Shown here: positions 37,277 to 60,968 of the stretch, piece by piece
Layout of the letters: the number at the start of each line of letters is the position of its first letter
How positions within the stretch are numbered: position 1 is the first letter of the stretch
Assembly: GCA_963832755.1 (NCBI GenBank)
Contig: CAWHVM010000003.1
Location: 521,420 to 585,419, forward strand
From: an uncultured Acidobacteriaceae bacterium
Lineage (GTDB): Bacteria; Acidobacteriota; Terriglobia; Terriglobales; Acidobacteriaceae
Length of the DNA stretch: 64,000 nt
Direction of reading: 5' to 3'
Translations under genes and position numbers: made by a program
The notes under the pieces: generated by a model
Told to the model about the DNA's origin: nothing
The model's database searches: none
Seen by the model: the letters and a program-made list of their open reading frames with translations, nothing else

Positions 37277-40200
37277 TCAAAACGTGAATCTCACAGAGAA
37301 CTGAAGCTGTCGCGGAGTGAACGCCGTGCGCGGCAGTCCGAAATTTGTATTGGGCGTCGTTGGGATGAACAGAGTCGTTCCGATCGGGGTGGGGGCCACT
37401 GACCCCCCGGGAACCGAGGTCCCACCGTTCGGGCAGGTCACAGATGCAGAGCCCTGCTGAATCGCCCTAGTCATGGCGTCGTTGTAATGCTGTGGAACGC
37501 CTCCGCAAAACACAGGTGAGCCGTAAACACTCGTAACCTCATCATAGTTTGCCCGGTTTAGCAGGTTGAAGGCATCAAACGCGAGATTCGCGGTGAAGCG
37601 GTCGTTGATATGCACCGCGCGGGTTACGCGCAGGTCCCAGTTGTAATACGGATCGCCGATATACGTGTTGCGCGGAATCATGGTCTGGCAGTCTTGCACG
37701 TCGGGACATGAGCCGGCAATGAACGACGAGCCGCCGACGCGGTCGGTGGAGCCGCCGGCGACATCGTTCAGAGTGTTGCTGCCGTAAAAAATGGTGAAGG
37801 GCCGGCCGGATTGCAAGGTGACGATATTGCTCAACTCAAAATTCCGCCAGGGCCCATTTTGCGGCGCAATAGCGGTAAAGTTGGCCACCACGCGATGCCG
37901 GGCATCCTGGTTGGAGTTGGCGCGTTCCGCCGCATAATCAAACTGGTTGGGCGGCAGGTTGATGAAGGTAGTAAAGTTGCCATTGTCGATGGTGTGGGAA
38001 TAAGTGTAGTTGGCCGTCAGGTTGAAAAACTTTCCACGCTCCAGCACGGTCAGCGTTCCGCCGTGGTAAATGGCATTGGCAACGTCGTTGTTGTAGTCTT
38101 CCAGCCCTGAGCTGATGGTTCGCAGGCCGGAGCCGAGAGCCCCGCCGAAGAAGGGCCCTAGACCGGCAAGGGCACCCGTGCCCAGGGTCGGCGTTCCGGT
38201 GCAAGGCGAGAGTGTGCCATCGGCATTGAGCCATCCCGGCACCCATTCCGGCAGCGGGTCGGTGACTGCCGACTTGGTGGTGCCCGCTGGGCAGGGGACG
38301 TTGAGGTTGTTCCCGCGAACCAACTTGTGGGCCTCCACGAACAGATAGCTCAGCTGGAGTGCAAAACCCCGGCCGAGCTGGTGATCAATCTCGAAGCTGC
38401 CCTGCTCGGCATAAGGCGCCCGCGCGTTGTGGTCCATGCCGCCCTCGCCAATGCCGCAGGCTCCAGTGGTAAAGCAGGTGCCGGCCATCTCTACAGAGGG
38501 GAAGGCCGTGTTATAGGCTCCCGTTTGTATGATGTTGGCCGCAAGACAAGGCGCCTCCGGAACACCAGCACAGGGTGAGCCGGGAGGGCCCGGCGATGGC
38601 GGGTCTGCCAGAAGCTGGTACCCCTGCCCAGCCTGCGCTAGATTGGACGCGATATTGGGAAACTTCTGGGGCTGAATTCCGGCGCCGCTGCAAATGGCTG
38701 ATACACCCGATGTCGCCTGATTGCCGCATTGATACCCTGCCACGATCTTCTGCGTATTGGGCACGAAGAAGAAAGTCAGATTTTGCCGGTCGAAGAAAAT
38801 CCCGAATCCCGCGCGAAGCACGGTGCTGCTGTTGGGAGCATAAGCTAGCCCAATACGCGGCTGAAATTCGTTGTAGTCATTGTTCACGAATGCTGCCAGG
38901 CCGGTTTCATAATCCCATCGCAGGCCATAGTTCACGGTTAATTTGGGATTTAGCTTCCATTGATCCTGGGCAAACACGCCCCAGTATCCATGGTTGATAT
39001 TCCGGGTGAAGCCGCCAAGGAGCGAGGGAGGGTAGGCATTGGCCCATGTTGAATTGGGGAACCCACCGCCGTTTAGCGGATTGGCTGTGGTAACTGTCGG
39101 AATGCAGGGTGTAGGGCCGGAGGCATCGCCGCTACAGGCGGTGGGACTGGTTGGCAGTGGAGTGCCTGCGTACATGAAGACCACGCCATTGTCTTGAGGG
39201 ACGGCGCAGGTATCAGCGGAAGTGCCCAAACCGGTTCCCGCAGTCGGATAGGCGCCACCGAAGTTCGAATTGAAATACTGGGCGAAATCAGTGAAACAAG
39301 AAATGCCAGGTATTAACAGCCGAGTCGGCATGAAGCCGGGGTAACCTTCCACGCTGCTCAGCCAGTTGCCGTCAACCCCAAATTTCGCAAGGTGATTGCC
39401 CTTGACCCAGGATAGCGACTCGGAGAGCTGGGCTCGGGTCTCGTAGAGCCGGTCGTTGGTTCCGAAATTATGCCCCAGTTCGAGATCATTCAGGATGCTG
39501 AAGTCCGGCTGGCCCGTAGCCCCGGGAAAGTTGTAGTGCCGCCGCGCGTATTGCGCGAGCACCGTATTAACCAGATTGGGTTTCAATGACGAGTTCACTG
39601 TGGCGACCACCGCCTGGTCGCGAATGTAAAGGTCGCGGCCGCCGCTGGGCACACCAACTCCTCCGCCATCCAGTGTTTGCCCCACCAGTTGGTTCGTTGA
39701 TCGGCTGTCCTCCACGTCGTAACGAAAGGCCAGACGGTTATTCGTGGTCAGTTGATGGTCGATTCTGGCAAAACCGGAATCGTCGTTGGCGGTTTTTAGA
39801 AAGCCTTGCAGAAATCCGAAGGCCTGGCCCTGAGTGATGTTGGCTGGATTGCCGGCGAAATTTGGCAGACAGGTGCTGACCGCGCCGAGGCAGCCCTCGG
39901 GAGCCAGCCCCATCAGCGCCTTAGCCTGGTCTATGAGCAAAATGTTGTTGACCAGATCGGGCGGATACACCGGCGACTGGGCGCTGCGTTTGCCTTCATA
40001 GTTCACAAAGAAGAAAGTCTTGTCTTTGACCAAGGGACCGCCGAGCGAGGCCCCGAACGAGTTTTGCCGAACAGCGTCGGGCAGCGGGGGAGGCTGCAGC
40101 GGTGAGTGCGCGTCGAAGGCGTTGTTTTGAAAAAACTCGTAGAGCGAACCATGCAAATTGTTGGTGCCTGACTTGGTCACGATATTGACGATTCCGCCCA

Positions 40201-40915
40201 TGGCGCGGCCATACTCCGCGCCAAAGCTGTTGTTCACGACGCGGAACTCTTGGACCGATTCCTGGGGCGGCGTCGCGCGCTGGATGCCGCTGGCGGAGTT
40301 TACGAAGTCGGCGCCATCCACCGTGATCTCATTGCTAAACGAACGCATGCCGCCAAACGAGATCTGCGTCACCTCAAACTCGGTGAAGGTCGTTCCCAGG
40401 CTGGTCCGACTGGTGGCCACACCGGGAGTGAGGAGGGCAAAGTCCGTGAACACACGGTTGCTAATGGGCAAGTCCTCAATCTGTTGGGTTTCTACGACCT
40501 GGCTGATCTCGGTTTTGGTGGGCTCGATGAGGGGGGCTTCCGTGGTTACGGTGACGGTTTCGGAAGCTGCCGCAACCTTCAAAGTGGGGCTGACGGTGAG
40601 AACCTGACCAACGGTCATGACAATGCCAGTCTGCTGATACTTGGCGAAGCCGCTTGCGGTAATTGTCAGCTCGTATTTCCCAGGAGGAAGGTTCGGGACC
40701 ACGAAAAAACCTGTGGTATTTGTGGTCGCCTGAAAAGTCTGGTTGGTGTCGGGGTCGCGCACAACCACCCGCGCGCTAACTACCGCTCGCCCCGCAGGGT
40801 CCAGGACCGTGCCGTTCAGTTGAGCGAAGCTAACAGCTTGGGCCGCTGCCGATGGTGCAGACGCTCCCAGTACAGCGAGAAGGTAAAGAACAACACCCAA
40901 CCAGCGTGTTCTCAT
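37277..40915 (-). CDS. TonB-dependent outer-membrane receptor with carboxypeptidase-regulatory-like N-terminal domain (second copy of this architecture)
   Basis: Start trimmed to MRTRWLGVVLYLLAVLGASAPSAAAQA. Followed by LNGTVLDPAGRAVVSARVVVRD...TGFFVVPNLPPGKYEL and C-terminal ...QLQFSVRFTF. Confidence 0.9.
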   Translation of the reverse strand: MRTRWLGVVLYLLAVLGASAPSAAAQAVSFAQLNGTVLDPAGRAVVSARVVVRDPDTNQTFQATTNTTGFFVVPNLPPGKYELTITASGFAKYQQTGIVMTVGQVLTVSPTLKVAAASETVTVTTEAPLIEPTKTEISQVVETQQIEDLPISNRVFTDFALLTPGVATSRTSLGTTFTEFEVTQISFGGMRSFSNEITVDGADFVNSASGIQRATPPQESVQEFRVVNNSFGAEYGRAMGGIVNIVTKSGTNNLHGSLYEFFQNNAFDAHSPLQPPPLPDAVRQNSFGASLGGPLVKDKTFFFVNYEGKRSAQSPVYPPDLVNNILLIDQAKALMGLAPEGCLGAVSTCLPNFAGNPANITQGQAFGFLQGFLKTANDDSGFARIDHQLTTNNRLAFRYDVEDSRSTNQLVGQTLDGGGVGVPSGGRDLYIRDQAVVATVNSSLKPNLVNTVLAQYARRHYNFPGATGQPDFSILNDLELGHNFGTNDRLYETRAQLSESLSWVKGNHLAKFGVDGNWLSSVEGYPGFMPTRLLIPGISCFTDFAQYFNSNFGGAYPTAGTGLGTSADTCAVPQDNGVVFMYAGTPLPTSPTACSGDASGPTPCIPTVTTANPLNGGGFPNSTWANAYPPSLLGGFTRNINHGYWGVFAQDQWKLNPKLTVNYGLRWDYETGLAAFVNNDYNEFQPRIGLAYAPNSSTVLRAGFGIFFDRQNLTFFFVPNTQKIVAGYQCGNQATSGVSAICSGAGIQPQKFPNIASNLAQAGQGYQLLADPPSPGPPGSPCAGVPEAPCLAANIIQTGAYNTAFPSVEMAGTCFTTGACGIGEGGMDHNARAPYAEQGSFEIDHQLGRGFALQLSYLFVEAHKLVRGNNLNVPCPAGTTKSAVTDPLPEWVPGWLNADGTLSPCTGTPTLGTGALAGLGPFFGGALGSGLRTISSGLEDYNNDVANAIYHGGTLTVLERGKFFNLTANYTYSHTIDNGNFTTFINLPPNQFDYAAERANSNQDARHRVVANFTAIAPQNGPWRNFELSNIVTLQSGRPFTIFYGSNTLNDVAGGSTDRVGGSSFIAGSCPDVQDCQTMIPRNTYIGDPYYNWDLRVTRAVHINDRFTANLAFDAFNLLNRANYDEVTSVYGSPVFCGGVPQHYNDAMTRAIQQGSASVTCPNGGTSVPGGSVAPTPIGTTLFIPTTPNTNFGLPRTAFTPRQLQFSVRFTF

Positions 40916-41169
40916 AAGATCCCCTTCCTGAGCGAATCTTCCCAGTAATCGACCAATGACGCGGCCTAACCAGCCGGTCGAAGGCACAGCTAAGAATCCA
41001 GTAGATGACATCCCGAGCAGAAAATCGCACCCACCTGCGATTCCCCACAAAAAGTCCGCCAATCTTTACTATGTTCCGATGCATACTGTCAACACAAAAA
41101 TGTATACAGGAATCGATCCAGGCATAAATCGTTGTTGGTTTTGGTTGAACTTAGGTGAATGGCTCGAAT

Positions 41170-42051
41170 TTACTGTATGCAATCAGCGATCAACGGACAC
41201 CGGGCCACGGCCAACAGATCCCCAAGGCTGCGCAGGACGCGATGTGGCCTTCTGCCCTTAGGCTGCCTCGCCCAATCGGATGCTTGGCAGATGCCGGTGG
41301 TCACCCCGAAGCCCACGGCGCTGCCTCGCCGGGCCATAATCATTTCGACCAGGGGATCGTCCCCGACAACCCCCACCCTACTCATGGGGACGCCCAGCTT
41401 TTTCGCCGCTAACCTCAGTGCGTGGAGCGAAGGTTTCCCGGTAAGAACCATGGGCGCGCGGGTGATCCTGCGCACCGCTGCTGAGATCGCATACGAGTAC
41501 CCCATGGTCTTGCCCCCGGCAGTGGCGAAAAATGGCACATCAGAAGCCACATAGAGCTGCGCGCCATTCCAGATGGCCTTCGCGGCGGCTTCTATATCTT
41601 TCATCCTGCAGTCGGGATGCCACCCGATATAGACGGCATCGACCCGGTCAGTGCCTTCGTCGTGAGTGAAGACCGTCTGCATTCCCACCCCTGCCAGAGC
41701 GTGCCCGACGCCGGGGGTTCCTAACACTAGAACTCGTTTAACGCCTCGGCGCGGCATGATATCGGCGGCCACGCTGGAAGGGTTAAGCAGAGCATCATCG
41801 GAGATCGGCAGGCCGACCGCGCGCAGTTTCGGTGCCTGTTCAGAGGAGGGATAGTTCGTTCCATTGGTGAAGACAACATAACGAATGCCGCGCGTATTCA
41901 ATTCGCTAAGTAACTCAATGGCGCCCGGCAGCACCTGATAGCCGCTCAGGGAACGGTCGGTTAGCACCAAGGTTCCATCGAGATCGAACAGGAAGGCCTT
42001 GACCGGTCTGAGCCGCGCATCACTCTTGCTAAGGCTGGGCCGGTGTTTCAT
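41170..42051 (-). CDS. HAD-superfamily (IIA/NagD-like) phosphatase
   Basis: FLFDLDGTLVL (DxD nucleophile motif), VVFTNGTN and VVGDDPL. Its ATG overlaps the carboxyltransferase stop (ATGA). Confidence 0.83.
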   Translation of the reverse strand: MKHRPSLSKSDARLRPVKAFLFDLDGTLVLTDRSLSGYQVLPGAIELLSELNTRGIRYVVFTNGTNYPSSEQAPKLRAVGLPISDDALLNPSSVAADIMPRRGVKRVLVLGTPGVGHALAGVGMQTVFTHDEGTDRVDAVYIGWHPDCRMKDIEAAAKAIWNGAQLYVASDVPFFATAGGKTMGYSYAISAAVRRITRAPMVLTGKPSLHALRLAAKKLGVPMSRVGVVGDDPLVEMIMARRGSAVGFGVTTGICQASDWARQPKGRRPHRVLRSLGDLLAVARCPLIADCIQ

Positions 42052-43541
42052 GCCGTCGCCTTGCCGCGCACTGGCGAGCCTTTTAGCAGCAGTCGAAAGC
42101 CAGACTTCTCAACCGACAGGCGTGCGATGTCTCGCCGCGACGCAAGCCCGCGAAGCAACTTCAGCACCGGGGCGATTTCCGGGTTGTAGGTTTGCGGCGC
42201 GGGCCCAGCGGCTTTCATGGCGTCGACTTGCCCGGCGGGCATGGTCGCACGCAGCAGGAACTCCTCGTCGCTCAATTCCAGCCCGATTCGCCTTCGCAAC
42301 TCGGCCAGAGGCGGCATGTCCGGCTCCTGCCGAAGCTCGCGGGTTCGGGGCAAGGAGTCGATACGGTCCAGCACTTCCGGCGCAATCGGCAGATTGGGTT
42401 TTCCGAATCGGCCCAAGGCGTAGCGAATCACTTCGTCCGGCACAATGGCGTAGCGTTCTTTGTCCTTGCGGGTGATGTTCATCACCGCCTGGGTCAGCAG
42501 CATCTGCGAGAAGGGGGTCATTACAATCGGCCAGCCTAATTCCTGGCGCACCCGGCCTATTTCTTCGATGACTGCGCTCTCTAGGTGCGCGAGACCGCTT
42601 TCCGCTAAGTGCCGCCGCATGGTGCCCGTCATGCCTCCGGGCAACTGGTGATGAAAGTATGCTGCGTCGAAAGGCTGCGGGCAGCCAGCAGGAAGTCCTT
42701 CCGCTTCTGCCAGGCGGGTGAAATAGCGGCCAACTTCAGCCAGAGCCTGATCGTCGATATCGATCTGGTGGCCGAGTTCGCGCAGATTAGCGACAACGCG
42801 TCCGGCGGGCGGATTGGATATTCCGTCGCTCGCGGCGCCCGAAGCGCACTGCACCGTGCCAACGCCCCACTCCGGAGCGTCCATGTAGACCAACTCGCCG
42901 AGACCAATCGTGCAATGGGAGTGGAGTTCCAAAGGCTTGTCGCCCATCACCGCCTTGACCGCCGGAATCATCGTGCGTGCGCGCGGCGGCGTCAGAAGGC
43001 CGCCGGGGTCCTTGATATAAAGGGCATCGACATCCGGACTCGCGGCAAGTTTGCGGGCACGCTCTACGTAGCGCGCGTCATCGTCAATAGGGCTTACCGT
43101 GAACACTAAAGCGGCGATGACATACTCGCCGCCAACCTGCTTGATCGTGTGCGCGCAGGCGACATTGGAATCGGCGTTGTTCATGGGATCAGCCAGCGCA
43201 AAGCGGCGGATCCCGTTTTTCACCAGCGTCGCGAACGCCAGCCTCATGAATTCAGGGCTGGCCGTTTCCCAGGAAATAAAGCGGAACCCTGTCGAGAGAA
43301 ATTGAAGTGGCGTATTCGGCGTAGCCTTCGCCATCAGCCGAATTCTCTCCCACGGGTCTTCCCTCTTGTAGCGGACCGCAACGCCCATGTGCGTGGAGGT
43401 CGTAAAGTCAATCGCCTTGAACCCCACACGGTCCATGACGGGCGCAATGGTCAGGGTTTTTGCCGTGTCGATGCCCAGCGCCGCCCAAAGACTCTGGTTG
43501 CCGTCGCGGAGTGAGGTCTCAACGATCTGAATCGTAGCCAC
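42048..43541 (-). CDS. biotin-dependent carboxyltransferase subunit, pyruvate-carboxylase-B / oxaloacetate-decarboxylase-alpha / transcarboxylase-5S type, without a biotinyl domain
   Basis: GTG start. IVETSLRDGNQSLWA...EDPWERIRLMAKATPNTPLQFL...YIKDPGGLLTP...LELHSHCTIGLG. 497 aa. Confidence 0.87.
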   Translation of the reverse strand: MATIQIVETSLRDGNQSLWAALGIDTAKTLTIAPVMDRVGFKAIDFTTSTHMGVAVRYKREDPWERIRLMAKATPNTPLQFLSTGFRFISWETASPEFMRLAFATLVKNGIRRFALADPMNNADSNVACAHTIKQVGGEYVIAALVFTVSPIDDDARYVERARKLAASPDVDALYIKDPGGLLTPPRARTMIPAVKAVMGDKPLELHSHCTIGLGELVYMDAPEWGVGTVQCASGAASDGISNPPAGRVVANLRELGHQIDIDDQALAEVGRYFTRLAEAEGLPAGCPQPFDAAYFHHQLPGGMTGTMRRHLAESGLAHLESAVIEEIGRVRQELGWPIVMTPFSQMLLTQAVMNITRKDKERYAIVPDEVIRYALGRFGKPNLPIAPEVLDRIDSLPRTRELRQEPDMPPLAELRRRIGLELSDEEFLLRATMPAGQVDAMKAAGPAPQTYNPEIAPVLKLLRGLASRRDIARLSVEKSGFRLLLKGSPVRGKATA

Positions 43542-43544
43542 AGT

Positions 43545-43994
43545 TCAAGCCTCCGGGCGCACGCGCATCAGAACTTCGCCATACTCGACCGCGCCCCCGT
43601 TTTTCACCAGTATTTCGGCCACCTCGCCCTTCACGCCTGCATGGACGGTGTGCATCAGTTTCATGACTTCGATGATGCCGACCACTGTTTGCTCAACGAC
43701 CTTCGATCGCAACTCTACGAACGGAGGCTCACCCGGCTTGGGTGCAATGTAGAAGATTCCGATGAGAGGAGCAGGAATTTCTAACAAGCCCGGTTCGGAT
43801 GGCGGCTTTGGTTTCGTTTGTAGCGGCGAATGGGGTGGAGCCGCCGGCGCCGGCGGAGGATCGGCAACTTGCCGGAATGCCGACCCGCGCTGGAGGTTCA
43901 GCTTGACGCCATCGATCTCCAGCGTCAATTCCTCGAAGCTCGACTCCTCGAGGATGCGCATGATCTCGGCCACATCTTTGGCCGTGAGCGTCAA
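43545..43994 (-). CDS. biotin carboxyl carrier protein (BCCP)
   Basis: C-terminal VVGIIEVMKLMHTVHAGVKGEVAEILVKNG (biotinyl-Lys context). I prefer the TTG start at 43994, with GGAGG 6 nt upstream, overlapping the upstream stop (TTGA). Confidence 0.8.
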   Translation of the reverse strand: MTLTAKDVAEIMRILEESSFEELTLEIDGVKLNLQRGSAFRQVADPPPAPAAPPHSPLQTKPKPPSEPGLLEIPAPLIGIFYIAPKPGEPPFVELRSKVVEQTVVGIIEVMKLMHTVHAGVKGEVAEILVKNGGAVEYGEVLMRVRPEA

Positions 43995-45040
43995 CGCCGG
44001 CCTCCAAAGATGTTCATCACGTGCAGAAGAGGGTTCTCCGCCGGCTTCGCAATCGGAGTTTTGTCTTTCCCGGACCACACCGTTTCCGGGCGGCTTTGCA
44101 ACAGAAAGATTTCGCCCCGGTGATCAATCGCCCACTCGATGTCCCGAGGCCTCCCATAATGGCCTTCGACTCTGCGGCCAATTTCTGCCAGCGCATTCAA
44201 CTCCGCGTCGCTGATCGACGGCGCACGGCGAAGGTCTTCCGGCGTTTCTATGGGCTTGATCCCGCCGTTCTCAGCGGGCACGTGTTGTATGCGCTTATCG
44301 GAAATGTCACGCACCGAAATTTGCCCGGTAATTTTGCCAATCACGAAGCGATCCGGAGTGACTTCGCCGCCTACTACCGCCGAGCCCAGACCCCAGGCCG
44401 ATTCGATAGTGATCACGGAGCGGTCGCCTGTTAGCGGGCTGCGCGTGAACATCACTCCCGCCGAGCGCGCTTCGACCATTTTTTGGATGACGACCGCAAT
44501 CGCCACTCCGTTTTCCGGAGTGCGGTCTTTAAGGCGGTACGAGATCGAGGGAACCGAATAGAGGCTGGCCCAACAAGAGCGCACGTAGTTCAAAACCGGC
44601 TCGACGCCCTTCACCCAAAGATAAGTATCCTGCAGACCGGCGAAACTGGCCTCCTCTGAATCCTCCGATGTAGCCGAAGAGCGCACCGCCAGTGGGCAAT
44701 TGAGATCCGGTGCGCACAACTCCTCATGCGCCGCCACGATGTCTGCGCAAACGTCTTCCGGCAACGGCGCGCTCTTGACGCGGCTGCGAAGTTCTTCGGA
44801 AAGCAGGCGGATTCCTTTCAGGTCGTGCAGCGACAGCACCTCCACACGCGAGCGGATCGGTTTTTCTCTTTCGATCCCGGCCAGGACGCGTTCAAACCCC
44901 TGGGTGGTTACGACGAAACCGGGCGGCACCGCGATATTGGCGCGCGTCAACTCGCCTAATGAGCCGCCCTTGCCTCCGACTGTGGCGCGATCGGCGAGCG
45001 TGATATCGGCAAACCAACTGATGTTCGCGGTGGAACGCAT
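43991..45040 (-). CDS. PEP-synthase/PPDK N-terminal ATP-grasp-type subunit (phenylphosphate-synthase beta, PpsB-like)
   Basis: Start trimmed to MRSTANISWFADITLADRATVGGKGGSLGEL. Contains VAVRSSATSEDSEEASFAGLQDTYL and DIEWAIDHRGEIFLLQSRPET. 349 aa with no mobile His domain. Confidence 0.85.
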   Translation of the reverse strand: MRSTANISWFADITLADRATVGGKGGSLGELTRANIAVPPGFVVTTQGFERVLAGIEREKPIRSRVEVLSLHDLKGIRLLSEELRSRVKSAPLPEDVCADIVAAHEELCAPDLNCPLAVRSSATSEDSEEASFAGLQDTYLWVKGVEPVLNYVRSCWASLYSVPSISYRLKDRTPENGVAIAVVIQKMVEARSAGVMFTRSPLTGDRSVITIESAWGLGSAVVGGEVTPDRFVIGKITGQISVRDISDKRIQHVPAENGGIKPIETPEDLRRAPSISDAELNALAEIGRRVEGHYGRPRDIEWAIDHRGEIFLLQSRPETVWSGKDKTPIAKPAENPLLHVMNIFGGRR

Positions 45041-45062
45041 GGTAGCTGTTCGATCCGGCTGT

Positions 45063-45611
45063 TCAGATATAAAGCTGTTTATTAATCGGAATGCCGTGCT
45101 CCCGGCAATAGCTCTCGTAGTGATTGATGAACCACCAGACATCGACCGTTTCGACGAAATTGCCGTTGTCGTCGTAAAACTCCAGCGGTCCCTGGAGCCA
45201 ACCAAACAGCTTGACGCCGTTGGGGTGGTCGCTCACGAGGGTATGGACCAGCCCCGGCGTCTCGTAGATGAAGCCGCCCGGGCCGGCAACCCAATCGTAT
45301 TCGAGATAGCGGGCGCTGCCCTCGAGGCAGATCATTACGACCGTTCCGCGATGCTTGTGCGTGCCAATCACGCCAGCAGACTTTATCCAGAGAATGTTGC
45401 TAAAGATGTTATGGCGAGTATCGAAAAGAAGATGGCGGATTGCCGCATTGGGGCCGAACGGCACCCACGGACTCTCTTGTTCTGAAGAGCCGACGAAGGT
45501 GCCCGGTATGCCGTGCCGCTTGATCACATCCGCATAGGCTTCAGGTACGTCCACGATTTTGTAAGCCGTAGACGGCGGAGCCGTCATTTTGGTAATGCTC
45601 GATGTCGTCAT
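45063..45611 (-). CDS. cupin, 2,4'-dihydroxyacetophenone-dioxygenase (DAD)-like, paralog 1
   Basis: Start trimmed to MTTSSITKM, with GAGGAGG 8 nt upstream. Contains ESPWVPFGPN...THKHRGTVVMICLEGSARYLEYDW...HTLVSD. About 60% identical by eye to 62509-63003. Confidence 0.78.
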   Translation of the reverse strand: MTTSSITKMTAPPSTAYKIVDVPEAYADVIKRHGIPGTFVGSSEQESPWVPFGPNAAIRHLLFDTRHNIFSNILWIKSAGVIGTHKHRGTVVMICLEGSARYLEYDWVAGPGGFIYETPGLVHTLVSDHPNGVKLFGWLQGPLEFYDDNGNFVETVDVWWFINHYESYCREHGIPINKQLYI

Positions 45612-45733
45612 AGTGTGCGCCTCCTCATGCAGCTTGACCGGGCTATTGACTCTGTGCCGGCTCCAGTTCGGGTTTTTGCAACCAAACGTCAACCAAAAGG
45701 CGCAAGAAACGCAAGAAACGGAGTGATAAACCC

Positions 45734-46234
45734 CTATCCCGCACGGCAGGCAGCCTCCATCGTGGCTTTGGCAGCATTCAATGTTGCCTGGGTCTCGCGT
45801 GCGATTTTACGTTTTGCGATTAAGTTGAGGAGCTTGGCTTTCAGGGTTGTCGTCGAGTAATAGTGGCTAATTTCCACCCTGGTTGACCGATGGCCGAGTG
45901 TTTGGAACGTCGTTTCCACTCTGTAATCGCTGAGAATCTTGCTGATACCGAATGTGTCCTCCGGCAACACAGTGACAATCTTTTGCAGCGGGATAATTTC
46001 GATGTCCTTCTCGATGCACGTGTGCTTCCCGCCCGCAAGATGACACTGATATGACGCGCCCGGCTCGCGGAGGGTCTTGCCAGAAAGAAGATCAACCTTG
46101 ACCACGCGAGGATGGAACTCCGGGATCTTCGTGAGATCCATGCTGAACGACCACACCGCTTCCAAAGGCGCATTGATGATGACTTCCTGCTTGGATCGAA
46201 ACGGTGGCTGCAAATCTTGCCTCCAAATTAGCAC
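45734..46234 (-). CDS. SRPBCC (START/polyketide-cyclase-like) ligand-binding-fold protein
   Basis: 166 aa. The sequence ...SKQEVIINAPLEAVWSFSMDLTKIPEFHP... is typical of the SRPBCC N-terminus. Confidence 0.68.
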   Translation of the reverse strand: MLIWRQDLQPPFRSKQEVIINAPLEAVWSFSMDLTKIPEFHPRVVKVDLLSGKTLREPGASYQCHLAGGKHTCIEKDIEIIPLQKIVTVLPEDTFGISKILSDYRVETTFQTLGHRSTRVEISHYYSTTTLKAKLLNLIAKRKIARETQATLNAAKATMEAACRAG

Positions 46235-46279
46235 GAAAACTCAAGCCCAAAACAACCTTGGCTATTCATCGGACAAGTT

Positions 46280-48100
46280 CTACTGAAGAATCGTCACCAC
46301 GCCCCTCCCGCCATCCACGCGAACGCGCTGACCGTCTTTGACCTTCTGCGTAGCTGTGCCTGTACCCACCACTGCCGGCAATCCATATTCCCGCGCCACG
46401 ATCGCCGCGTGGCTCATCGAGCCGCCGATGTCGGAGACGGCTGCCGCAATCTTTTGAAAAACCGGCGCCCAACTCGGGTTGGTAACGTGGCAGACCAGAA
46501 TGTCGCCACGGCGCAGGCGATCAATTTCGTCCACCGACATCACCACCCGGGCAACGCCCTCGACTACGCCGTTGGAAGCGGCGAATCCCTTGATCTCATT
46601 GGAATCCGGCTTCTCGCCGGCGGCCAGCCATGAATCCAGGTTTTCACGCGTAATGCCCCACAGCATGACAATGGCCGGATCATCAATGACATCGGGCACC
46701 GGTCCCAGCGCGGGCGGAGTTTCGTGCTTGGCCCACTCGGCAATCGCCGCTTTGCGCTCATTCACGATCGGCGTCCAGCGTGCGGGACCACGTGGCGCAG
46801 ACCCGTTCGACCAGGAGATCATGAGATCGATAATCGCCGCCTCGACTTCGTAGTGCGTAAGGTGAAAAACGTCCTCGGCGCTGGGGAAGAAGCCACGCTC
46901 GGCCAATAGCGCCCCGAATTCCCGAATCTTGTTAAAGAACAGATTGGTGTACCAATGCTCACAATAGAATTTGTGCCCTTCGACATAGGGGAACACACGA
47001 TGCGTGAGTTGGATCATCTGGTCATACGCGGCGCGGTCCTGGTCGCTATTGAGCAGGTCGCGGTAGGCGTTAATGAGCTGCTGGCGTTCCGCCATCAGTT
47101 TGGCGATCGGCCGCTCGATACGCTCGCCGGCTTTAAGGTTGGCGATGTAACCGGGCAGCGAGGCGAAGGGCATCGAGAGATCGTCGTTCCAAGAACGATG
47201 GTAGTGGTAGAAGCCGTCGCCAACGTTGATGTTGAACCAGGGGTCGCGCGAGACGGCCAGTTCTTCGAGCCACTTCCGGCCAGATTCGGACCGCTCCATA
47301 GATCGGATAATTTCTCCGGGAGCGACGCCGTCGCGGAAAAGGTGATCTACGCCTAGTTCGATGGCGCATTTGGCGAGACGCCTGAGTTCGTCGTCGGGAC
47401 GAAAGATTTCCGCTTCCATGCCTGCCACCATGCGGGCCACCGTCTGGTCGCTGATTTCCGGGAATGCCTTTTTACAGAAATCGAAGAACGTAAGATAGGC
47501 GCCGTAACCGAGCAGCAGAAACTCGAAGTGATGGTGCCACATGCGGAAGTAGCCTTCGAGGGTCTTTTGGTAAATGTCGAGGAGGTAGTGGTTAGACGCG
47601 ATGCCGCGTCCCGCGTGCACGTGCTCCAGAGGTTCGAACTCGGGCAGCACAAGCTTCGGCAGCGCCTCGGCTTCCCGGATCAGAGCCAGCATCTTGTTTT
47701 TCCATTGCGCAAATAGTTCTTCCCAGTGTTCGTAGTAATAGAAAGCCCGTTGCTGGAATTCCTTTGTGCGCCGCGCGATTTCGGCGGGATCGGTTACGGA
47801 GTTGCCGCCGATGTAGATCCGTCCGTTGATGATGCGATAGTCAATTCCCAGCGTCGTCGGTAGGCTGTGCACGCGCGTGTTGGCCGCGCCCAAGGCGCAA
47901 TAAGCGGCTTCCGCGGTGGTGACATCGAAAGCGCTCATTGGTTCCGGGAAATGCATGGAGTTGTAAAACCAGAAGCGTTCGTCATCTTCCTTGGCGAACT
48001 GCATGTAATAGGGATAGGCGGCTTGCGCCGTTTCCGTGCCCGGGATGACCTTCAAGGAACTCGGAAGCGGAAACCCTCGAGCTTTGACGGTTGTGCTCAT
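46280..48100 (-). CDS. PEP-utilising-enzyme mobile-domain subunit (phenylphosphate-synthase alpha, PpsA-like)
   Basis: Start trimmed to MSTTVKARGFPLPSS. The C-terminus GVVEGVARVV...GDILVCHVTNPSWAPVFQKIAAAVSDIGGSMSHAAIVAREYGLPAVVG carries the phospho-histidine swivel domain. 606 aa. Confidence 0.85.
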   Translation of the reverse strand: MSTTVKARGFPLPSSLKVIPGTETAQAAYPYYMQFAKEDDERFWFYNSMHFPEPMSAFDVTTAEAAYCALGAANTRVHSLPTTLGIDYRIINGRIYIGGNSVTDPAEIARRTKEFQQRAFYYYEHWEELFAQWKNKMLALIREAEALPKLVLPEFEPLEHVHAGRGIASNHYLLDIYQKTLEGYFRMWHHHFEFLLLGYGAYLTFFDFCKKAFPEISDQTVARMVAGMEAEIFRPDDELRRLAKCAIELGVDHLFRDGVAPGEIIRSMERSESGRKWLEELAVSRDPWFNINVGDGFYHYHRSWNDDLSMPFASLPGYIANLKAGERIERPIAKLMAERQQLINAYRDLLNSDQDRAAYDQMIQLTHRVFPYVEGHKFYCEHWYTNLFFNKIREFGALLAERGFFPSAEDVFHLTHYEVEAAIIDLMISWSNGSAPRGPARWTPIVNERKAAIAEWAKHETPPALGPVPDVIDDPAIVMLWGITRENLDSWLAAGEKPDSNEIKGFAASNGVVEGVARVVMSVDEIDRLRRGDILVCHVTNPSWAPVFQKIAAAVSDIGGSMSHAAIVAREYGLPAVVGTGTATQKVKDGQRVRVDGGRGVVTILQ

Positions 48101-48221
48101 GCGTGCCTTCTGATCGCCGGCTTCGTTTCGCGCGGAGATTATACCCCGACCCGCAACGCTCTTTGCAGACAGTTTCGCCTGGATGCGCGATGAATCCAGT
48201 TGCAGGAGCCGACAACGGAGA

Positions 48222-48755
48222 TCATCGGCGTCCATTTCGTGAGCCGGCGAAGCCCCGATCAAGAGGCGCGCGGCTTTCGTCATTGTTCAGGTGAACGAAT
48301 TTCTTCAGAAGCTGCATAAAAATCTTTTGCTCTTCGCGGTTCAGCGCCTGCAGCAGGCGGCTGGCGAGAAAGGCGCTGCGGGGAATGAGCTTTTTCACGA
48401 GGGCAGCCCCTCTCGGACTCAGGTGAAGTAGGCGAAAGCGTTTGCTCTTCATCGGCATCATCCTGAGCACAAGTCCCCGCTCTTCCAGCCGCACCGCAAG
48501 ATCTGCGGCGGTGGAAGTATCGAGCGCACAAAACTTCGCCAGCGTGACTTGATCAATCCCCGGGTGCTCCTGAAGAACTCGGAGCACGCAATATTGGATG
48601 GGAGTTACTCCGTTGCCCATCGTCGAGTGAAACAACGAAACCGCGATCTGCTGAGCGCGCCGGATCAAGTGGCCCGGTTCGTCGTACACTTCGCCAATGG
48701 CCCCGTTGTTCCGGCGAAGGTTAGGCGTGGAAGATCGTTTGGCAGTAAGGCTCAT
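48222..48755 (-). CDS. MarR-family transcriptional regulator
   Basis: Start trimmed to MSLTAKRSS. Winged helix ...PIQYCVLRVLQEHPGIDQVTLAKFCALDTSTAADLAVRLEERGLV. Divergent from the Fcs-like ligase and upstream of the PpsA-like gene. Confidence 0.85.
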   Translation of the reverse strand: MSLTAKRSSTPNLRRNNGAIGEVYDEPGHLIRRAQQIAVSLFHSTMGNGVTPIQYCVLRVLQEHPGIDQVTLAKFCALDTSTAADLAVRLEERGLVLRMMPMKSKRFRLLHLSPRGAALVKKLIPRSAFLASRLLQALNREEQKIFMQLLKKFVHLNNDESRAPLDRGFAGSRNGRR

Positions 48756-48798: not shown

Positions 48799-50709
48799 TT
48801 GCCGGGCTGGGATACATCCATTAAGCTCATCCCATTGAGTACACTGAACCATAGTACGAGGTTTGAACACGTTCCGCACCGGCCGGTGCGTTTCTTTTCG
48901 CCGGGGGTTGAGGTGATTCGCCGTGCGGACGGCAGTTTGCGGATGCGCTCCGTAGAACCCTTGCAGAATTACGACTCTCGCGTGGGGGATTGGCTGGACC
49001 GCTGGGCGGCGGAAGCACCCGATCGCATCTTCATCGTCGAGCAGACTCCAAACGGAGAGCGCAGCATCGCTTACGGAGAAGCGCGGGAGTCGGTGCTGTT
49101 TCTGGCCGAGGGATTGCTCGGCTATGGGCTCGGTCCAGAGCGACCGCTCGCCATTCTCGCTGAAAATGGAATTGATCACGCCCTCATCATGTTGGCCGCG
49201 CTTTATGTAGGTATCCCGGTCGCCCCCATCGCCCCTGCTTACGCCCTTCAATCGATCGATTATGTGAAGCTGTCCCATGCTTTTAAGTTGCTGACCCCCG
49301 GAATGGTGGTGGCCGATGACGGCGCGCTTTACGACAAACCGATTGAACACGCTCTGAACGCTGATATTCCGCTGATCGCTCTCCGCAACGCTGTGGCATC
49401 CACGAAATGGTGCGACCTGGCGTCGCTCAAAGGGGATGGAAGTCATCAGGATGAGGTGCGCGCAGCAGCGGCGCGGGTTGATCGGCAAACGATCGCCAAG
49501 TTTCTGTTCACCTCCGGCTCCACGGGCATGCCAAAAGTCGTCGTCAACACGCATGGCATGATCTGCAGCAACTCGCAGATGAAGCGGCAGGTGGCGCCGT
49601 GCCTGGTGGAAGAACCGCCCGTGATGGTCGATTGGGCTCCGTGGAACCATACCGCGGGCAGCAACAGCAATTTCAGCATCATCCTTCACAATGGCGGCAC
49701 GCTGTATATCGACCCCGGAAAGCCGACTCCCGCGAGGTTTGCCGCCAGCCTGGAACTTCTGCGACGAGTATCGCCGACCATCTACTTCAATGTGCCCCGC
49801 GGCTACGAGCTGTTGGTTCCGCACCTGGAGGCCGACCGCGCTTTTCGCGAGCATTTTTTCCGTCGGCTGAAATTTCTGTGGTATGCCGCGGCGTCGATGC
49901 AGCCGGCGACCTGGTTCGATCTGGAACGGCTTGCCGTGGAAACGGTCGGGCACAGGATTCTAACCGTGAGCGGCCTCGGCATGACCGAGACCGCGCCCAT
50001 TGCGCTCTTCGGCAACGCCAAAGCAAATGGCCCGGGGGTGGTCGGCATACCGGTCGCGGGCGTCGAACTCAAGCTCATCCCCGACGACAACAGCTTTGAA
50101 GTGCGGTATCGAGGCCCGAACGTCACTCCAGGCTACTGGCGCGATCCCGCGGCAACCGCGGCTGTTTTCGATGAGGAAGGCTTCCTGCGCTCCGGCGATT
50201 TGCTGAGTTTTATCGATCCGGAGCGGCCGCAGGCGGGTCTGCGTTTCGATGGCAGGATGAATGAAGTTTTCAAGCTGGATTCGGGCACCAAGGTCAGCGC
50301 CGGCAAGTTGCGCCTGGACGCGCTGGATATGCTGCGCCCGCTGGCGCAGGAAGTGGTGGTCGCCGGAGCTGGCCGCAAAGATGTGCGCATTCTTATCTTT
50401 CCCGACTGGGAGGTGTGCGCCGCCACAGCTGGCTTAGATGGCGCCGCTAGACCCGCACAAATCGCCGCCAACTCAACTGTCCGGGCGATGTTCTACGAAC
50501 GCCTCGCCAAAGTCTACTCTGCCGGAACCGGCAGCTCCAACCGCATCGTGGCTGGGCTGCTGGTGGAAGACCCACCATCAAGCGCGGCTGGCGAGCTAAC
50601 GGAGAAAGGCACGGTGAACAGTCGCGCCTTGCAGCGGAACCGGCCCGAACTTCTCGAAGCTTTGTTCGGAGATACAGATGAACGAGTGTTGCGTGTAGGA
50701 CGCGCTTAA
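48799..50709 (+). CDS. fcs: feruloyl-CoA-synthetase-like AMP-dependent ligase (start uncertain; TTG at 48799 or 48835)
   Basis: N-terminal ...VEVIRRADGSLRMRSVEPLQNYDSRVGDWLDRWAAEAPDRIFI resembles Fcs-type hydroxycinnamate-CoA ligases. Also FTSGSTGMPKVV and GLGMTE. About 625-636 aa. Confidence 0.75.
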   Translation: MPGWDTSIKLIPLSTLNHSTRFEHVPHRPVRFFSPGVEVIRRADGSLRMRSVEPLQNYDSRVGDWLDRWAAEAPDRIFIVEQTPNGERSIAYGEARESVLFLAEGLLGYGLGPERPLAILAENGIDHALIMLAALYVGIPVAPIAPAYALQSIDYVKLSHAFKLLTPGMVVADDGALYDKPIEHALNADIPLIALRNAVASTKWCDLASLKGDGSHQDEVRAAAARVDRQTIAKFLFTSGSTGMPKVVVNTHGMICSNSQMKRQVAPCLVEEPPVMVDWAPWNHTAGSNSNFSIILHNGGTLYIDPGKPTPARFAASLELLRRVSPTIYFNVPRGYELLVPHLEADRAFREHFFRRLKFLWYAAASMQPATWFDLERLAVETVGHRILTVSGLGMTETAPIALFGNAKANGPGVVGIPVAGVELKLIPDDNSFEVRYRGPNVTPGYWRDPAATAAVFDEEGFLRSGDLLSFIDPERPQAGLRFDGRMNEVFKLDSGTKVSAGKLRLDALDMLRPLAQEVVVAGAGRKDVRILIFPDWEVCAATAGLDGAARPAQIAANSTVRAMFYERLAKVYSAGTGSSNRIVAGLLVEDPPSSAAGELTEKGTVNSRALQRNRPELLEALFGDTDERVLRVGRA

Positions 50710-50858: not shown

Positions 50859-52256
50859 ATGAAACCGAACAGTCTGGAAGATTTGCTGCAGACGGTGGCA
50901 AGCCCCGTGACGATGTTGCGCAATTCACAGATCGGCGCTTACGTCTATCCGGTGGTTCCGTACGAGTACTCCAATTGGCGCGACGAACAACGCGCCTGGC
51001 GCGAGACCGCGGTTCTCTTCGACCAGTCGCACCATATGGTGAACATCTACGTCGAAGGCCGCGATGCGCTGCGAATGTTCTCCCATCTCGCAACCAACAG
51101 TTTTGCAAACTTCCCCGTCAATCGCGCCAAACAATTCGCACCTTGCACCTACGATGGCTTTGTCATCGGCGACGGCATTCTCTTTCATCTGGAAGAAAAC
51201 CGGCTGGTTTTTGTGGGGCGCGCGCCGGCCGCCAACTGGATTCAGTTTCACGCTGAAACCGGCGGCTATGCCGTGAAAATCGAAAAGGACGACAGGTCCC
51301 CTTCCAATCCGAAAGGCAAGGCTGTTTTTCGCAGCTGCTACCGTTACCAGATTCAAGGCCCGAATGCGCTGCAGATTCTGGAAAAACTGAACCGCGGGCC
51401 GGTCCCCGAGATCAAGTTCTTCCACATGGGTGCGATCAACATCGCCGGACGCAAGGTCCGCGCGCTGCGCCACGGCATGGCCGGCGCTCCTGGGCTTGAG
51501 ATCTGGGGGCCATACGAGGAGCGCGAGGAGATTCGGGCGGCGATTGTTGATGCGGGCAGCGATTTTGGCCTTTACGAAGTCGGAGCCAGAGCTTACTCCA
51601 CCAATACCCTGGAATCGGGATGGATTCCGTCTCCGCTTCCTGCGGTCTACACCGGCGAGAAGATGAAGGCCTACAGGCAGTGGCTGCCTGCCACCAGCTA
51701 CGAAGGAACGGGTTCGATCGGCGGCAGCTTCGAGTCCGATGACATCGAGAACTATTACATGTCGCCATTTGCTCTGGGTTATGGGCCGTTCATCAAATTC
51801 GACCACGATTTCGTCGGGAAAGAAGCGCTCCAGAAAATGGCCGGCGAACCGCAGAGGAGGAAGGTGACCTTCGCCTGGAATGCCGAGGATGTATTGAAGA
51901 TTTTCGCATCGATGTTTGAGGCGGGCGACATTTACAAGTATATCGATCTGCCGCAATCAAACTATACGTCCGCCTCCTACGACAAGGTCCTATCGGGAGG
52001 AAAAACGGTCGGGTTCTCCATGTTCGCGGGTTACAGCTATAACGAGCGCTCGATGCTCTCTCTGGGAGTCGTTGATCCGGATGTTGAAACCGGCACGGAA
52101 GTCAGGCTTGTATGGGGTGAGGCCGGAGGCGGCACGAAGAAGATCACCGTCGAGAGGCATAAACAAACGGAGATTCGTGCCATCGTCAGCCCGGTGCCTT
52201 ATTCCAAAGTCGCACGAGAGACATATGCAAGAGGATGGCGGACGGTTCAAGTGTGA
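50859..52256 (+). CDS. ligM: tetrahydrofolate-dependent aryl O-demethylase (vanillate/3-O-methylgallate O-demethylase, GcvT-fold)
   Basis: MLRNSQIGAYVYPVVPYEYSNWRDEQRAWRETAVLFDQSHHM...GRAPAANWIQFHAETGGYAVKIEKDDRSPSNP...LRHGMAGAPGLEIWGPYE...NTLESGWIPSPLPAVYTGEKMKAYRQWL. This is closely collinear with Sphingobium SYK-6 LigM as I remember it. Confidence 0.88.
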   Translation: MKPNSLEDLLQTVASPVTMLRNSQIGAYVYPVVPYEYSNWRDEQRAWRETAVLFDQSHHMVNIYVEGRDALRMFSHLATNSFANFPVNRAKQFAPCTYDGFVIGDGILFHLEENRLVFVGRAPAANWIQFHAETGGYAVKIEKDDRSPSNPKGKAVFRSCYRYQIQGPNALQILEKLNRGPVPEIKFFHMGAINIAGRKVRALRHGMAGAPGLEIWGPYEEREEIRAAIVDAGSDFGLYEVGARAYSTNTLESGWIPSPLPAVYTGEKMKAYRQWLPATSYEGTGSIGGSFESDDIENYYMSPFALGYGPFIKFDHDFVGKEALQKMAGEPQRRKVTFAWNAEDVLKIFASMFEAGDIYKYIDLPQSNYTSASYDKVLSGGKTVGFSMFAGYSYNERSMLSLGVVDPDVETGTEVRLVWGEAGGGTKKITVERHKQTEIRAIVSPVPYSKVARETYARGWRTVQV

Positions 52257-53140
52257 GAAGAAGATGTAGACGGTGCCGATAGAGACCTTTCGGCAGCAAT
52301 CCAATCCATAGTTTTTCTAAAGCCGCCAAAAATGTAGAAGTGCAGACCCGCGATGCCGAGCTTCCTGCCATCGCCGTCCGCCATAGAGGCCGCAAGTCCG
52401 CGGATAATCGGTTCGGGCCCTCTCTCCACGAGAATCTTGGCGAAGGATGGGTTTTCCTTCAGGACGTGCAGCGAGTTGCCTACTCCGCAGCGCACGGCAT
52501 ACCGCATGAGGGTTAACAAGCTGGCCGGGCCGGCCAACCCAATTCGTATCGGAACCTCTATACCGCGCGCCCGAACTGCTCGCACCCATTCGATCACGGG
52601 TTCAGCTTTGAAACAGAATTGCGTAATGATCGAAAGTTTCAGCCCCTCCGTGCGCGCGAAGCTGACTTTTGCCGCGAGCGCTTCATCCAGGATCTTCTCA
52701 GAGATGTGAGGGTTGCCTTCGGGAAAACCGCCGACCGCCATGCGAGTGATGCCGACTCTTTGAAACGCGCCGGTTTGCATGACCGCCAGGCTGCTGTCGT
52801 AGGGTCCGGCCGGTGTGGCCCGGTCGCCCCCGATGATCAGAATGCGATCCACGCCTGCATCCTTCAATTGCCCTGCCAGCCGCTGGAGCTGTGCCGCGCT
52901 CTGCAGATGACGCGCGCCCACGTGCGGTGTGGGGATGTGACCTGCACGCTTCAAACTTGCGGCCGGCGCGATCATATCCATTGGGTTTGATCCGGGAATC
53001 CAGGCCAGGGAGACTTCGGTGCCGGGATCGAGACGTTCTGCCGCTGCCTGCAAAGTTTTGGCGTCGCCCGGATTCAACTCAATCGAGTGGCCGCGCAGAA
53101 GTTCAATGACCGAAGCAGTTACAGAGTCTATGGCAGGCAT
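52247..53140 (-). CDS. metF: 5,10-methylenetetrahydrofolate reductase
   Basis: 297 aa. ...VDRILIIGGDRATPAGPYDSS...FPEGNPH...IITQFCF. Convergent with ligM, with the 3-prime ends overlapping by 10 nt. Confidence 0.85.
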   Translation of the reverse strand: MPAIDSVTASVIELLRGHSIELNPGDAKTLQAAAERLDPGTEVSLAWIPGSNPMDMIAPAASLKRAGHIPTPHVGARHLQSAAQLQRLAGQLKDAGVDRILIIGGDRATPAGPYDSSLAVMQTGAFQRVGITRMAVGGFPEGNPHISEKILDEALAAKVSFARTEGLKLSIITQFCFKAEPVIEWVRAVRARGIEVPIRIGLAGPASLLTLMRYAVRCGVGNSLHVLKENPSFAKILVERGPEPIIRGLAASMADGDGRKLGIAGLHFYIFGGFRKTMDWIAAERSLSAPSTSSSHT

Positions 53141-53147
53141 TGCAATA

Positions 53148-60965: not shown

Positions 60966-60968
60966 GTT

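Follow-up and report, generated by a model that had tools for sequence, protein, structure and literature searches.

Oxidative depolymerisation of lignin yields acetovanillone and related aryl methyl ketones as major products, and the Acv/Hpe pathway is the main known route by which they are funnelled into metabolism, one that is now being engineered into production strains. Its gene order and enzymology have been described for the acvABCDEF and hpeHICBAD genes (PMC9618137, 10.1101/2022.04.28.489975, PMC12167813). Here, we analysed a 64-kb stretch of DNA from an uncultured Acidobacteriaceae bacterium (contig CAWHVM010000003.1; hereafter, the window), in which an operon of eight genes, all on the minus strand (41170-48755), is by homology an Acv/Hpe-type cluster in every tested respect save one, the gene for its biotin carboxylase (BC). 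The operon type itself is known; what is new is the repeated shedding of the operon's own BC with retention of the biotin carboxyl carrier protein (BCCP) and carboxyltransferase (CT), together with a clade-specific cupin that resembles 2,4'-dihydroxyacetophenone dioxygenase (DAD; EC 1.13.11.41), an enzyme that uses O2 to split its substrate into 4-hydroxybenzoate and formate. We read the locus, with a probability of roughly 60%, as an Acv/Hpe operon for 4-hydroxyphenyl methyl ketones, in an acidobacterium resembling Candidatus Sulfotelmatobacter, that would encode a working phospho-aryl-ketone carboxylase whose BC is supplied from elsewhere in the genome.

The function of every operon gene was assigned by homology, and the correspondence to known clusters is gene for gene. 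On a Rhizobium leguminosarum plasmid (L006), the order is kinase alpha, kinase beta, BCCP, BC, CT, HAD phosphatase, acetoacetate-CoA ligase, and amidohydrolase, and the window proteins are 57% (alpha), 51% (beta), 45% (BCCP), 54% (CT), and 43% (HAD) identical to their counterparts there. A Rhodococcus plasmid (L007) has the same gene order, again with ligase and amidohydrolase, and identities to the window of 46% (alpha), 41% (beta), 52% (BCCP, over the C-terminal domain only), 45% (CT), and 36% (HAD). The L007 beta subunit shares 97% identity with HpeI of strain GD02, for which a crystal structure exists (PDB 9GOJ), and L007 was therefore used as a proxy for the characterised hpe cluster; the same HpeI structure is the top PDB match of the window kinase beta (E = 3.6e-67, 41% identity). 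For kinase alpha, the PDB holds no HpeH structure, and the swivel domain alone matches phosphoenolpyruvate synthases and RPH. The subunit scores 785 bits on NF006153 (cut-off, 578), and its phospho-His motif, SDIGGSMSHAAIVAREYG (SDIGGSMSH), fits the pattern S-x-x-G-G-x-x-x-H as defined for HpeH. The CT, whose PDB matches are 5KS8, 2NX9, and 1RQB, falls inside the clade of cluster-associated CTs in a neighbour-joining tree, and tblastn with it against plasmids recovered BC-containing clusters at 52-57% identity.

The Acv/Hpe identity of the kinase, carboxylase, and phosphatase genes, put forward in the original prediction, thus holds in the same order and at 36-57% identity to L006 and L007. 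The open reading frame (ORF) list and the Pfam and HMM matches likewise agree with its eight minus-strand genes in order, coordinates, and families (Table 1), and the phospho-His motif, both overlaps, and the 3-nt gap lie where it had placed them. Specifically, a TTGA overlap (43994-43991), with GGAGG 6 nt upstream, joins the stop of kinase beta to the start of BCCP; the BCCP stop is followed by ACT and the GTG start of CT, which makes the 3-nt gap; and an ATGA overlap (42051-42048) couples the CT and HAD genes.

Like the Hpe system of Rhodococcus rhodochrous GD02 (PMC9618137, PMC12167813), the window operon encodes a dikinase of two components that carries a swivel His, along with a free-standing BCCP, a CT of the PycB type, and a NagD-like HAD phosphatase, in the same order (36-52% identity to the proxy). 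It differs in having no BC gene, in carrying a DAD-like cupin gene and an SRPBCC insertion between the kinase genes, and in having no adjoining acetoacetate-CoA-ligase-type HpeE or amidohydrolase-type HpeF, in place of which stand a PRK12582-type acyl-CoA synthetase and a MarR regulator. The six-gene logic of acvABCDEF in Sphingobium lignivorans SYK-6 (10.1101/2022.04.28.489975), likened here by its described gene order, is also shared, although AcvD, the BC, has no counterpart in the window. Clusters of the MarK type (UPF0261, Tm-1-like) for acetovanillone (PMC12624787) have the same BCCP-BC-CT-HAD core, and their CTs are 52-57% identical to that of the window, but they use a single-subunit ADP-forming kinase instead of the two-component dikinase, and BC is present. 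Two other systems differ further: unlike the OadABG sodium pump, the window CT has no fused biotinyl domain, and Pfam scans of the window found no OadB; unlike Thauera Pps/Ppc, the window has no UbiD-family carboxylase, and its kinases are linked to a biotin-type CT and a BCCP.

The missing BC was sought by tblastn in all six reading frames of the window, with three BC proteins as queries. Two of these were annotated BCs of related clusters, and the third was an Escherichia coli AccC sequence, which is a valid probe because it is 47% identical to both annotated BCs. No BC was found, the best match having E = 0.1, and Pfam scans of 58 ORFs, comprising all non-shadow ones of at least 180 aa and the shorter BCCP and SRPBCC ORFs, returned no other biotin enzyme, 12S-type CT, OadB, or UbiD. 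The predicted lack of a BC from the operon and the 64 kb around it is borne out by both searches (tblastn E >= 0.1; Pfam), and it extends to relatives fetched with 10-kb flanks. These relatives came from a CT-alignment scan, restricted to one genome per species, that gave the best 80 of at least 593 candidate loci at 53-91% identity; about 85 related loci, with flanks of up to 10 kb per side (less for L055, on a contig of 7.8 kb), were annotated by tblastn, for which the queries were the proteins of the window along with BC, MarK, ligase, and amidohydrolase references. A BC gene lies between BCCP and CT in 73 of them, eleven of which are acidobacterial and have 78-81% CT identity. Ten loci share the BC-less state with the window, namely those of four Sulfotelmatobacter (L003, L009, L010, and L053), three Acidobacteriaceae (L015, L016, and L022), a gammaproteobacterium (L035), the isolate Novosphingobium sp. 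B 225 (L054), and an Alteraurantiacibacter (L055), and no BC was found in the flanks fetched for these ten (<=10 kb per side).

In the CT tree, the BC-less loci of Acidobacteria group together in a single clade whose sister is an acidobacterial BC-containing clade, while L035 is nested among BC-containing Steroidobacteraceae, and L054 and L055 fall among BC-containing Sphingomonadales. The BCCP/CT junctions are equally lineage specific: RVRPE[A/V/S]-stop, 3 nt, and a start codon in the Acidobacteria; a stop that overlaps the CT start in L035; TGATG in L054; and an 8-nt overlap in L055. Tree placement and junction sequences together indicate at least three independent losses, the BC-less state being derived by clean excision, with the coupling of BCCP and CT kept each time. 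A remnant or pseudogene of BC between BCCP and CT was also considered and ruled out, as just 3 nt lie there. The closest relatives of the window, which come from independent assemblies with the label Candidatus Sulfotelmatobacter or Terriglobales and have CTs 88-92% identical to its own, show the BC-less, cupin-containing gene order as well, and the layout is therefore no accident of assembly. As to whether this layout is conserved in Acidobacteriota, it recurs among them, whereas the sister acidobacterial clade keeps its BC.

The carboxylase parts left behind show no sign of relaxed constraint. By the Nei-Gojobori method, with synonymous divergence reaching dS of ~2, the ratios of nonsynonymous to synonymous substitution (dN/dS) in the BC-less clade versus its BC-containing sister clade were 0.14-0.25 versus 0.10-0.27 for BCCP, 0.05-0.10 versus 0.04-0.09 for CT, and 0.07-0.15 versus 0.07-0.13 for HAD. 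Further, the biotinyl-Lys motif of the window (EVMKL) aligns with E[VA]MKLM of all relatives, the N-terminal domain of BCCP is kept alike in BC-less and BC-containing relatives, and the CT motifs RDGNQS, KDPGG, and HSH (H-x-H) are invariant in the alignment. Unrelaxed dN/dS and the conservation of these motifs and of the BCCP N-terminal domain indicate that the carboxylase parts are in use.

These data bear directly on the idea that carboxylation is defunct, with the cupin having taken over side-chain cleavage and BCCP and CT lingering as decaying remnants or as a reverse decarboxylase. Such a takeover would fit the coincidence of BC loss with the cupin in most BC-less loci and the rank of the cupin as the most constrained gene. 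However, the dN/dS values of BCCP, CT, and HAD are as low as in the BC-containing relatives at dS of up to ~2; the ORFs, motifs, and translational coupling are all intact; L022 is BC-less without a cupin, while L029, L034, and L044 have both cupin and BC; and the Pfam scans of the window turned up no OadB-type membrane subunit for a decarboxylase. We consider this idea hardly credible, and decay of BCCP and CT in particular is ruled out by dN/dS. Purifying selection, while excluding decay, is compatible with both a trans-acting BC and transcarboxylation and does not decide between them.

In the working carboxylase that we favour, the two-component dikinase would phosphorylate the phenolic hydroxyl of acetovanillone or 4-hydroxyacetophenone, by analogy with HpeHI; BCCP and CT would then carboxylate the methyl group of the phospho-ketone to yield a phospho-aroylacetate, as HpeCBA does; and the HAD phosphatase would take off the phosphate, as does HpeD. 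The aroylacetate would be shortened to vanillate or 4-hydroxybenzoate, which LigM, PcaHG, and the beta-ketoadipate genes of the same island would carry onward. Carboxy-biotin would still be made, by the housekeeping AccC or another BC paralogue acting in trans on the operon's BCCP. The source of carboxy-biotin is the weakest link of this scheme, and we infer that it is most likely a BC encoded elsewhere. Multi-subunit carboxylases can share one BC among several CTs, as in actinobacteria, where AccA/AccBC serves several AccD subunits. There, too, CT and carrier rely on a BC encoded elsewhere, but BC and BCCP are fused and the CT is the variable part, whereas in the window a free BCCP stays with its CT. 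We favour supply in trans because BC is universally available, because the BCCP docking domain is unchanged, and because hpe/acv genes are usually dispersed, the kinase and carboxylase genes having been reported as clustered in just 52 of 836 genomes.

That same dispersal would also suit a dedicated BC that has moved to another locus, or BC supply from a further complete cluster of the acv/hpe type in the genome, with the operon representing one part of a split cluster. Consistent with this, another fragmented form of the cluster was observed, in which CT and HAD genes stand without BCCP, BC, or kinase within 10 kb upstream (L061:10001-12300), and some acidobacterial genomes have a distant, second type of complete cluster at 55% CT identity (L078, L081, and L083). 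On the other hand, among the best 120 homologues of the sister-clade BC, all at least 80% identical, about a quarter carry names, and those names are Acidiferrales or unclassified Acidobacteriota; no relocated sister-type BC labelled Sulfotelmatobacter was found among the named ones, and the one context sampled was a canonical cluster. Nor was any genome seen twice among the best 80 of the at least 593 loci. On balance, relocation appears unlikely.

A more radical explanation dispenses with BC altogether. The single 5S/PycB-type CT would act as an ATP-independent transcarboxylase, loading BCCP from oxaloacetate or another beta-keto acid and then passing the carboxyl group to the phospho-aryl methyl ketone in a ping-pong reaction at one active site. 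The independent loss of BC at least three times, with BCCP and CT still constrained and translationally coupled, would fit such an enzyme, as would the failure to detect a relocated dedicated BC among the best 120 BC homologues. In addition, the CT belongs to a family that handles pyruvate and oxaloacetate, and pyruvate and the aryl ketone are both methyl ketones. The CT alignment was also scanned for convergent substitutions in BC-less lineages, and just two columns stand out: residue 149 (window 43095-43097) is Val in three BC-less lineages and in none of 38 BC-containing sequences, which have Leu or Ile, and residue 218 (window 42888-42890) has lost its Thr in all four BC-less lineages, whereas 27 of the 38 BC-containing sequences keep it. 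These changes may be a lead to altered CT function, or may reflect chance, as they are conservative and few enough to be compatible with it (~3.5 columns like position 218 are expected). Other points speak against transcarboxylation. The Propionibacterium-type transcarboxylase (12S + 5S + 1.3S) has a second, 12S-type (Carboxyl_trans) partner, none of which is found in the 58 scanned window ORFs, and we know of no single-CT transcarboxylase of the kind envisaged. Moreover, the N-terminal domain of BCCP is as conserved as it is in the presence of BC, which fits continued BC docking, and a BC is available in every bacterium that makes fatty acids. We judge transcarboxylation to be distinctly unlikely, and supply of BC in trans stays our preferred reading.

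The second departure from the described systems is the cupin, whose gene lies between those of kinase alpha and kinase beta. Its DAD-like character, as predicted, is well founded: it matches two DAD structures, 4P9G from Alcaligenes and 5BPX from Burkholderia, at E = 2e-21, and all three His that bind the iron are conserved. Compared with the DAD of Alcaligenes sp. 4HAP (PDB 4P9G), for which residue roles have been described (PMC4219425), the window cupin shares the fold and the iron ligands His76, His78, and His114, and also keeps Tyr93, Glu108, Val82, and Phe43. Within the Acv-associated clade, the latter four columns are largely kept, apart from single substitutions in the divergent cupins of L054, L075, and L088. 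However, overall identity is ~40%, and the window cupin has Phe for Trp61 and Asn for Asp63, the binders of the para-hydroxyl, and Gly for Phe129, which stacks on the ring. Across the cupin clade, the Asn at 63 is invariant, the position of Trp61 is Phe, Tyr, or Ala, and the Gly at 129 is usual. The clade also differs from DAD in conserved extra segments at the N terminus (TAPPSTAYKIVDVPE) and the C terminus (GIPINKQLYI).

The Acv-associated cupins form a clade of their own, with DAD as the outgroup, and their tree mirrors that of CT; in the operon, the cupin has the lowest dN/dS (0.03-0.06). Homologues at 56-98% identity occur in or near Acv-type clusters of Acidobacteriota, Gammaproteobacteria, Sphingomonadales, and Streptomyces, in six arrangements. 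The cupin stands between the kinase genes in the Acidobacteria and in L029, where BC is kept; upstream and divergent in L034, L044, and L054; downstream in L075 and L088; and in a cupin-LigAB-LigM operon in L035. Elsewhere, the cupin has as its neighbours LigAB-LigM; genes for MFS, SDR, Zn-dependent alcohol dehydrogenase (Zn-ADH), and pyrroloquinoline quinone-dependent alcohol dehydrogenase (PQQ-ADH); or a VAO-type flavoprotein. At least three of the four BC-less lineages have a cupin, the contig of the fourth (L055) being too short to tell. Specifically, L029 (L029:17-7756), from a gammaproteobacterial metagenome-assembled genome (MAG), has the order alpha, cupin, beta, BCCP, BC, CT, HAD, with the cupin in the same slot as in the window, and is plausibly an intermediate state; together with the other loci in which cupin and BC do not exclude each other, it suggests that the cupin came before the loss of BC.

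We propose that the cupin would be a DAD-type iron dioxygenase with a remodelled aryl pocket, cleaving an alpha-hydroxy or related side-chain ketone of the guaiacyl or hydroxyphenyl type. Most likely, though we hold this less firmly, it cleaves an alpha-hydroxylated or related ketone to the same aromatic acid, in parallel to carboxylation. In DAD, Tyr93 is proposed to hold the alpha-hydroxyl of the alpha-hydroxyketone (PMC4219425), and its retention favours DAD-type chemistry over the cleavage of a beta-keto acid, the two substrates that had been envisaged at the outset. In Novosphingobium sp. B 225 (L054:15-6055), a divergent MFS-cupin-SDR-Zn-ADH unit lies beside a PQQ quinohaemoprotein alcohol dehydrogenase. 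These neighbours, along with the PQQ-ADH of the window, hint that alcohol or diol side chains may be oxidised to the ketone substrate of the cupin. The accompanying ideas that the cupin cleaves the aroylacetate and bypasses the CoA-dependent route found no support. An acyl-CoA synthetase gene is divergently adjacent to the operon, and genes for a ligase, ECH/3HCDH, and a thiolase are grouped at 15.6-20.7 kb of the window; with the genes of the CoA route present, no bypass is needed.

Several observations weigh against our reading of the locus. The cupin is found in 9 of 11 BC-less loci versus 5 of 73 BC-containing loci (naive Fisher p = 2.6e-7, a value to be read against 3-4 independent losses), and supply of BC in trans leaves this link unexplained. 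The trans supply itself is deduced from a 64-kb window, we infer the pairing of a housekeeping BC with the operon's BCCP, and the named BC homologues described above include no relocated sister-type gene of Sulfotelmatobacter. With regard to the substrate, the assignment comes from homology of 36-57%, and the phenol kinases PpsA, CreH, and HpeH are all ~45% identical to one another, so the kinase alone does not fix it; the replacement of Trp61, Asp63, and Phe129 further means that the substrate of the cupin should differ from that of DAD. Finally, the CT and cupin trees are neighbour-joining trees without support values, and many of the surveyed loci are MAGs, some with frameshifts or doubtful bin labels. 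One explanation would link the two novelties mechanistically: in cupin-bearing clusters, the BCCP-CT pair would do without any BC, as an ATP-independent transcarboxylase or as a CO2-level carboxylase pulled by irreversible steps further down the pathway, and the cupin would be a new dioxygenase that converts the aroylacetate or a related side-chain intermediate directly into vanillate or 4-hydroxybenzoate. The two would make up a cheaper, O2-dependent form of the acetovanillone pathway, evolved repeatedly in soil bacteria. The main basis for this is the coincidence of cupin presence and BC loss, and we regard it as very doubtful.

The third departure, the SRPBCC gene, had been listed as part of the system, which the survey contradicts. 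Directly after the stop codon of the alpha subunit, the window has an extra 569-bp segment (45711-46279, minus strand) that is missing from the collinear loci L003, L009, L010, L053, and L091, and tblastn found no SRPBCC match in the ~85 related loci. Its ORF probably encodes 159 aa from a TTG at 46213, with GGAGG upstream. Homologues exceed 1,200, with the best 120 at 82-98% identity, many of them on short contigs and with some clusters running to hundreds of members. Copies of the insert at 86-96% nucleotide identity occur in unrelated contexts (L093:5001-5522; L095:755-1393; L096-L100), including the inside of a PRTRC/ThiF/Prok-E2 element, a site beside outer-membrane-protein fragments, and one between acyl-CoA dehydrogenase and glyoxalase genes, and one homologue is fused to the N-domain of a DUF4096 transposase. 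The conserved unit consists of GGAGG, the 159-aa ORF, and a tail of ~20 nt (GGGGTTTATCA). No inverted repeats or classical target-site duplication were found around the insert; its 3' junction (45712-45729, minus strand) has a tandem GTTTCTTGC GTTTCTTGC, where relatives have a single GTTTCTT. This distribution marks the SRPBCC gene as a recent, strain-specific passenger insertion. Its role as a ligand-binding component of the pathway was ruled out, given its absence from all relatives and its scattered copies, and an exact-sequence look-up found the window SRPBCC protein not to be on record. A scan of the operon for promoters and terminators gave counts at or below shuffle expectation, the sole feature being a weak 5-bp hairpin with a T-rich tail just after the SRPBCC stop, in the tail of the insert, which might lessen read-through towards the cupin.

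Should the pathway operate with no BC of its own, fewer genes might be enough for engineering it, and either BCCP-BC pairing would be promiscuous or an ATP-saving mode of carboxyl transfer may exist. That the cupin clade is repeatedly inherited along with these clusters points to an accessory step of aryl-ketone catabolism that has gone unrecognised. At least 120 CT matches are at least 81% identical to that of the window, and the variant is abundant in Acidobacteriota of soil and peat metagenomes, which ties an uncultured, dominant soil group to the turnover of lignin monomers. Since Novosphingobium sp. B 225 (L054), a cultured isolate, has the BC-less layout, the question is open to experiment.

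Table 1. Positions of the operon genes and of selected neighbouring genes in the 64-kb window
Feature	Coordinates	Strand	Supporting matches
PQQ-ADH	31359-33527		
TonB-dependent-type outer-membrane receptor	37277-41062	-	CarboxypepD_reg, OMP_b-brl_4, Plug
HAD-IIA (NagD-like) phosphatase, HpeD/AcvF counterpart, 293 aa	41170-42051	-	Hydrolase_6, Hydrolase_like, TIGR01460
CT, PycB/OadA/5S type, 497 aa	42048-43541	-	HMGL-like and PYC_OADA domains; without biotinyl domain
BCCP, 149 aa from TTG start	43545-43994	-	Biotin_lipoyl; TIGR00531, 96 bits; EVMKL motif
Kinase beta (HpeI/AcvB-like ATP-grasp), 349 aa	43991-45040	-	PF01326 (PPDK_N), E = 1e-97
DAD-like 3-His cupin, 182 aa	45063-45611	-	PDB 4P9G and 5BPX, E = 2e-21
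SRPBCC ORF	45734-46234	-	on 569-bp insertion 45711-46279
Kinase alpha (HpeH/AcvA-like), substrate-binding and swivel phospho-His domain, 606 aa	46280-48100	-	PF00391, C-terminal; NF006153
MarR-family regulator	48222-48755	-	Pfam MarR/MarR_2; 91% identity to a 177-aa MarR in the same slot in L003
Acyl-CoA synthetase, PRK12582 type	48799-50709	+	PF00501; NF009232, 649 bits
LigM-type vanillate/3-O-methylgallate O-demethylase	50859-52256	+	NF047885, 753 bits (cut-off, 580)

Beyond the operon itself, the window holds a larger catabolic island (Table 1). The MarR gene heads the minus-strand block and is divergent from the acyl-CoA synthetase gene, the position of which is syntenic in all acidobacterial BC-less loci (L003, L009, L010, L053, L015, L016, and L022). 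Directly downstream of the operon, and in the same slot in L001-L003 and L091, lies the gene for the TonB-type receptor, a candidate uptake component. The LigM, pcaHG, pcaB, and pcaL-like genes that had been expected to complete the pathway are indeed present in the window by HMM and Pfam matches. The island at 52247-62327 mixes genes of both protocatechuate routes, with pcaHG (33528-35133), pcaB, and a pcaL-like fusion for 3,4-cleavage, and genes of the 4,5-cleavage lower-pathway type for an RraA-like aldolase (55110-55787), a PrpF-family protein (55800-56936), and an Amidohydro_2 protein (58921-59769). An MTHFR-like gene adjoins LigM. In close relatives, an ECH/3HCDH gene lies between the ligase and LigM, which is not so in the window. 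A CoA side-chain set at 11516-28644 comprises two acyl-CoA dehydrogenases, APH, His_Phos_1, a thiolase, a fused ECH/3HCDH, two AMP-forming ligases, an SDR, a Zn-ADH, E1 alpha and beta subunits of the 2-oxo-acid dehydrogenase type, and a DUF5938/saccharopine-dehydrogenase-like gene.

The survey of related loci also brought up ten in which a Tm-1-like/UPF0261 (MarK-type) kinase gene stands beside BCCP-BC-CT-HAD (L004, L005, L008, L058, L062, L069, L070, L076, L079, and L086). Among them are plasmids from P. putida YC-AE1 and S. yanoikuyae YC-JY1, both of which degrade bisphenol A, as well as a locus from an Aromatoleum MAG (L062). In one of the ten (L005), genes of the 3-keto-5-aminohexanoate-cleavage family and for a thioesterase lie upstream of the kinase.

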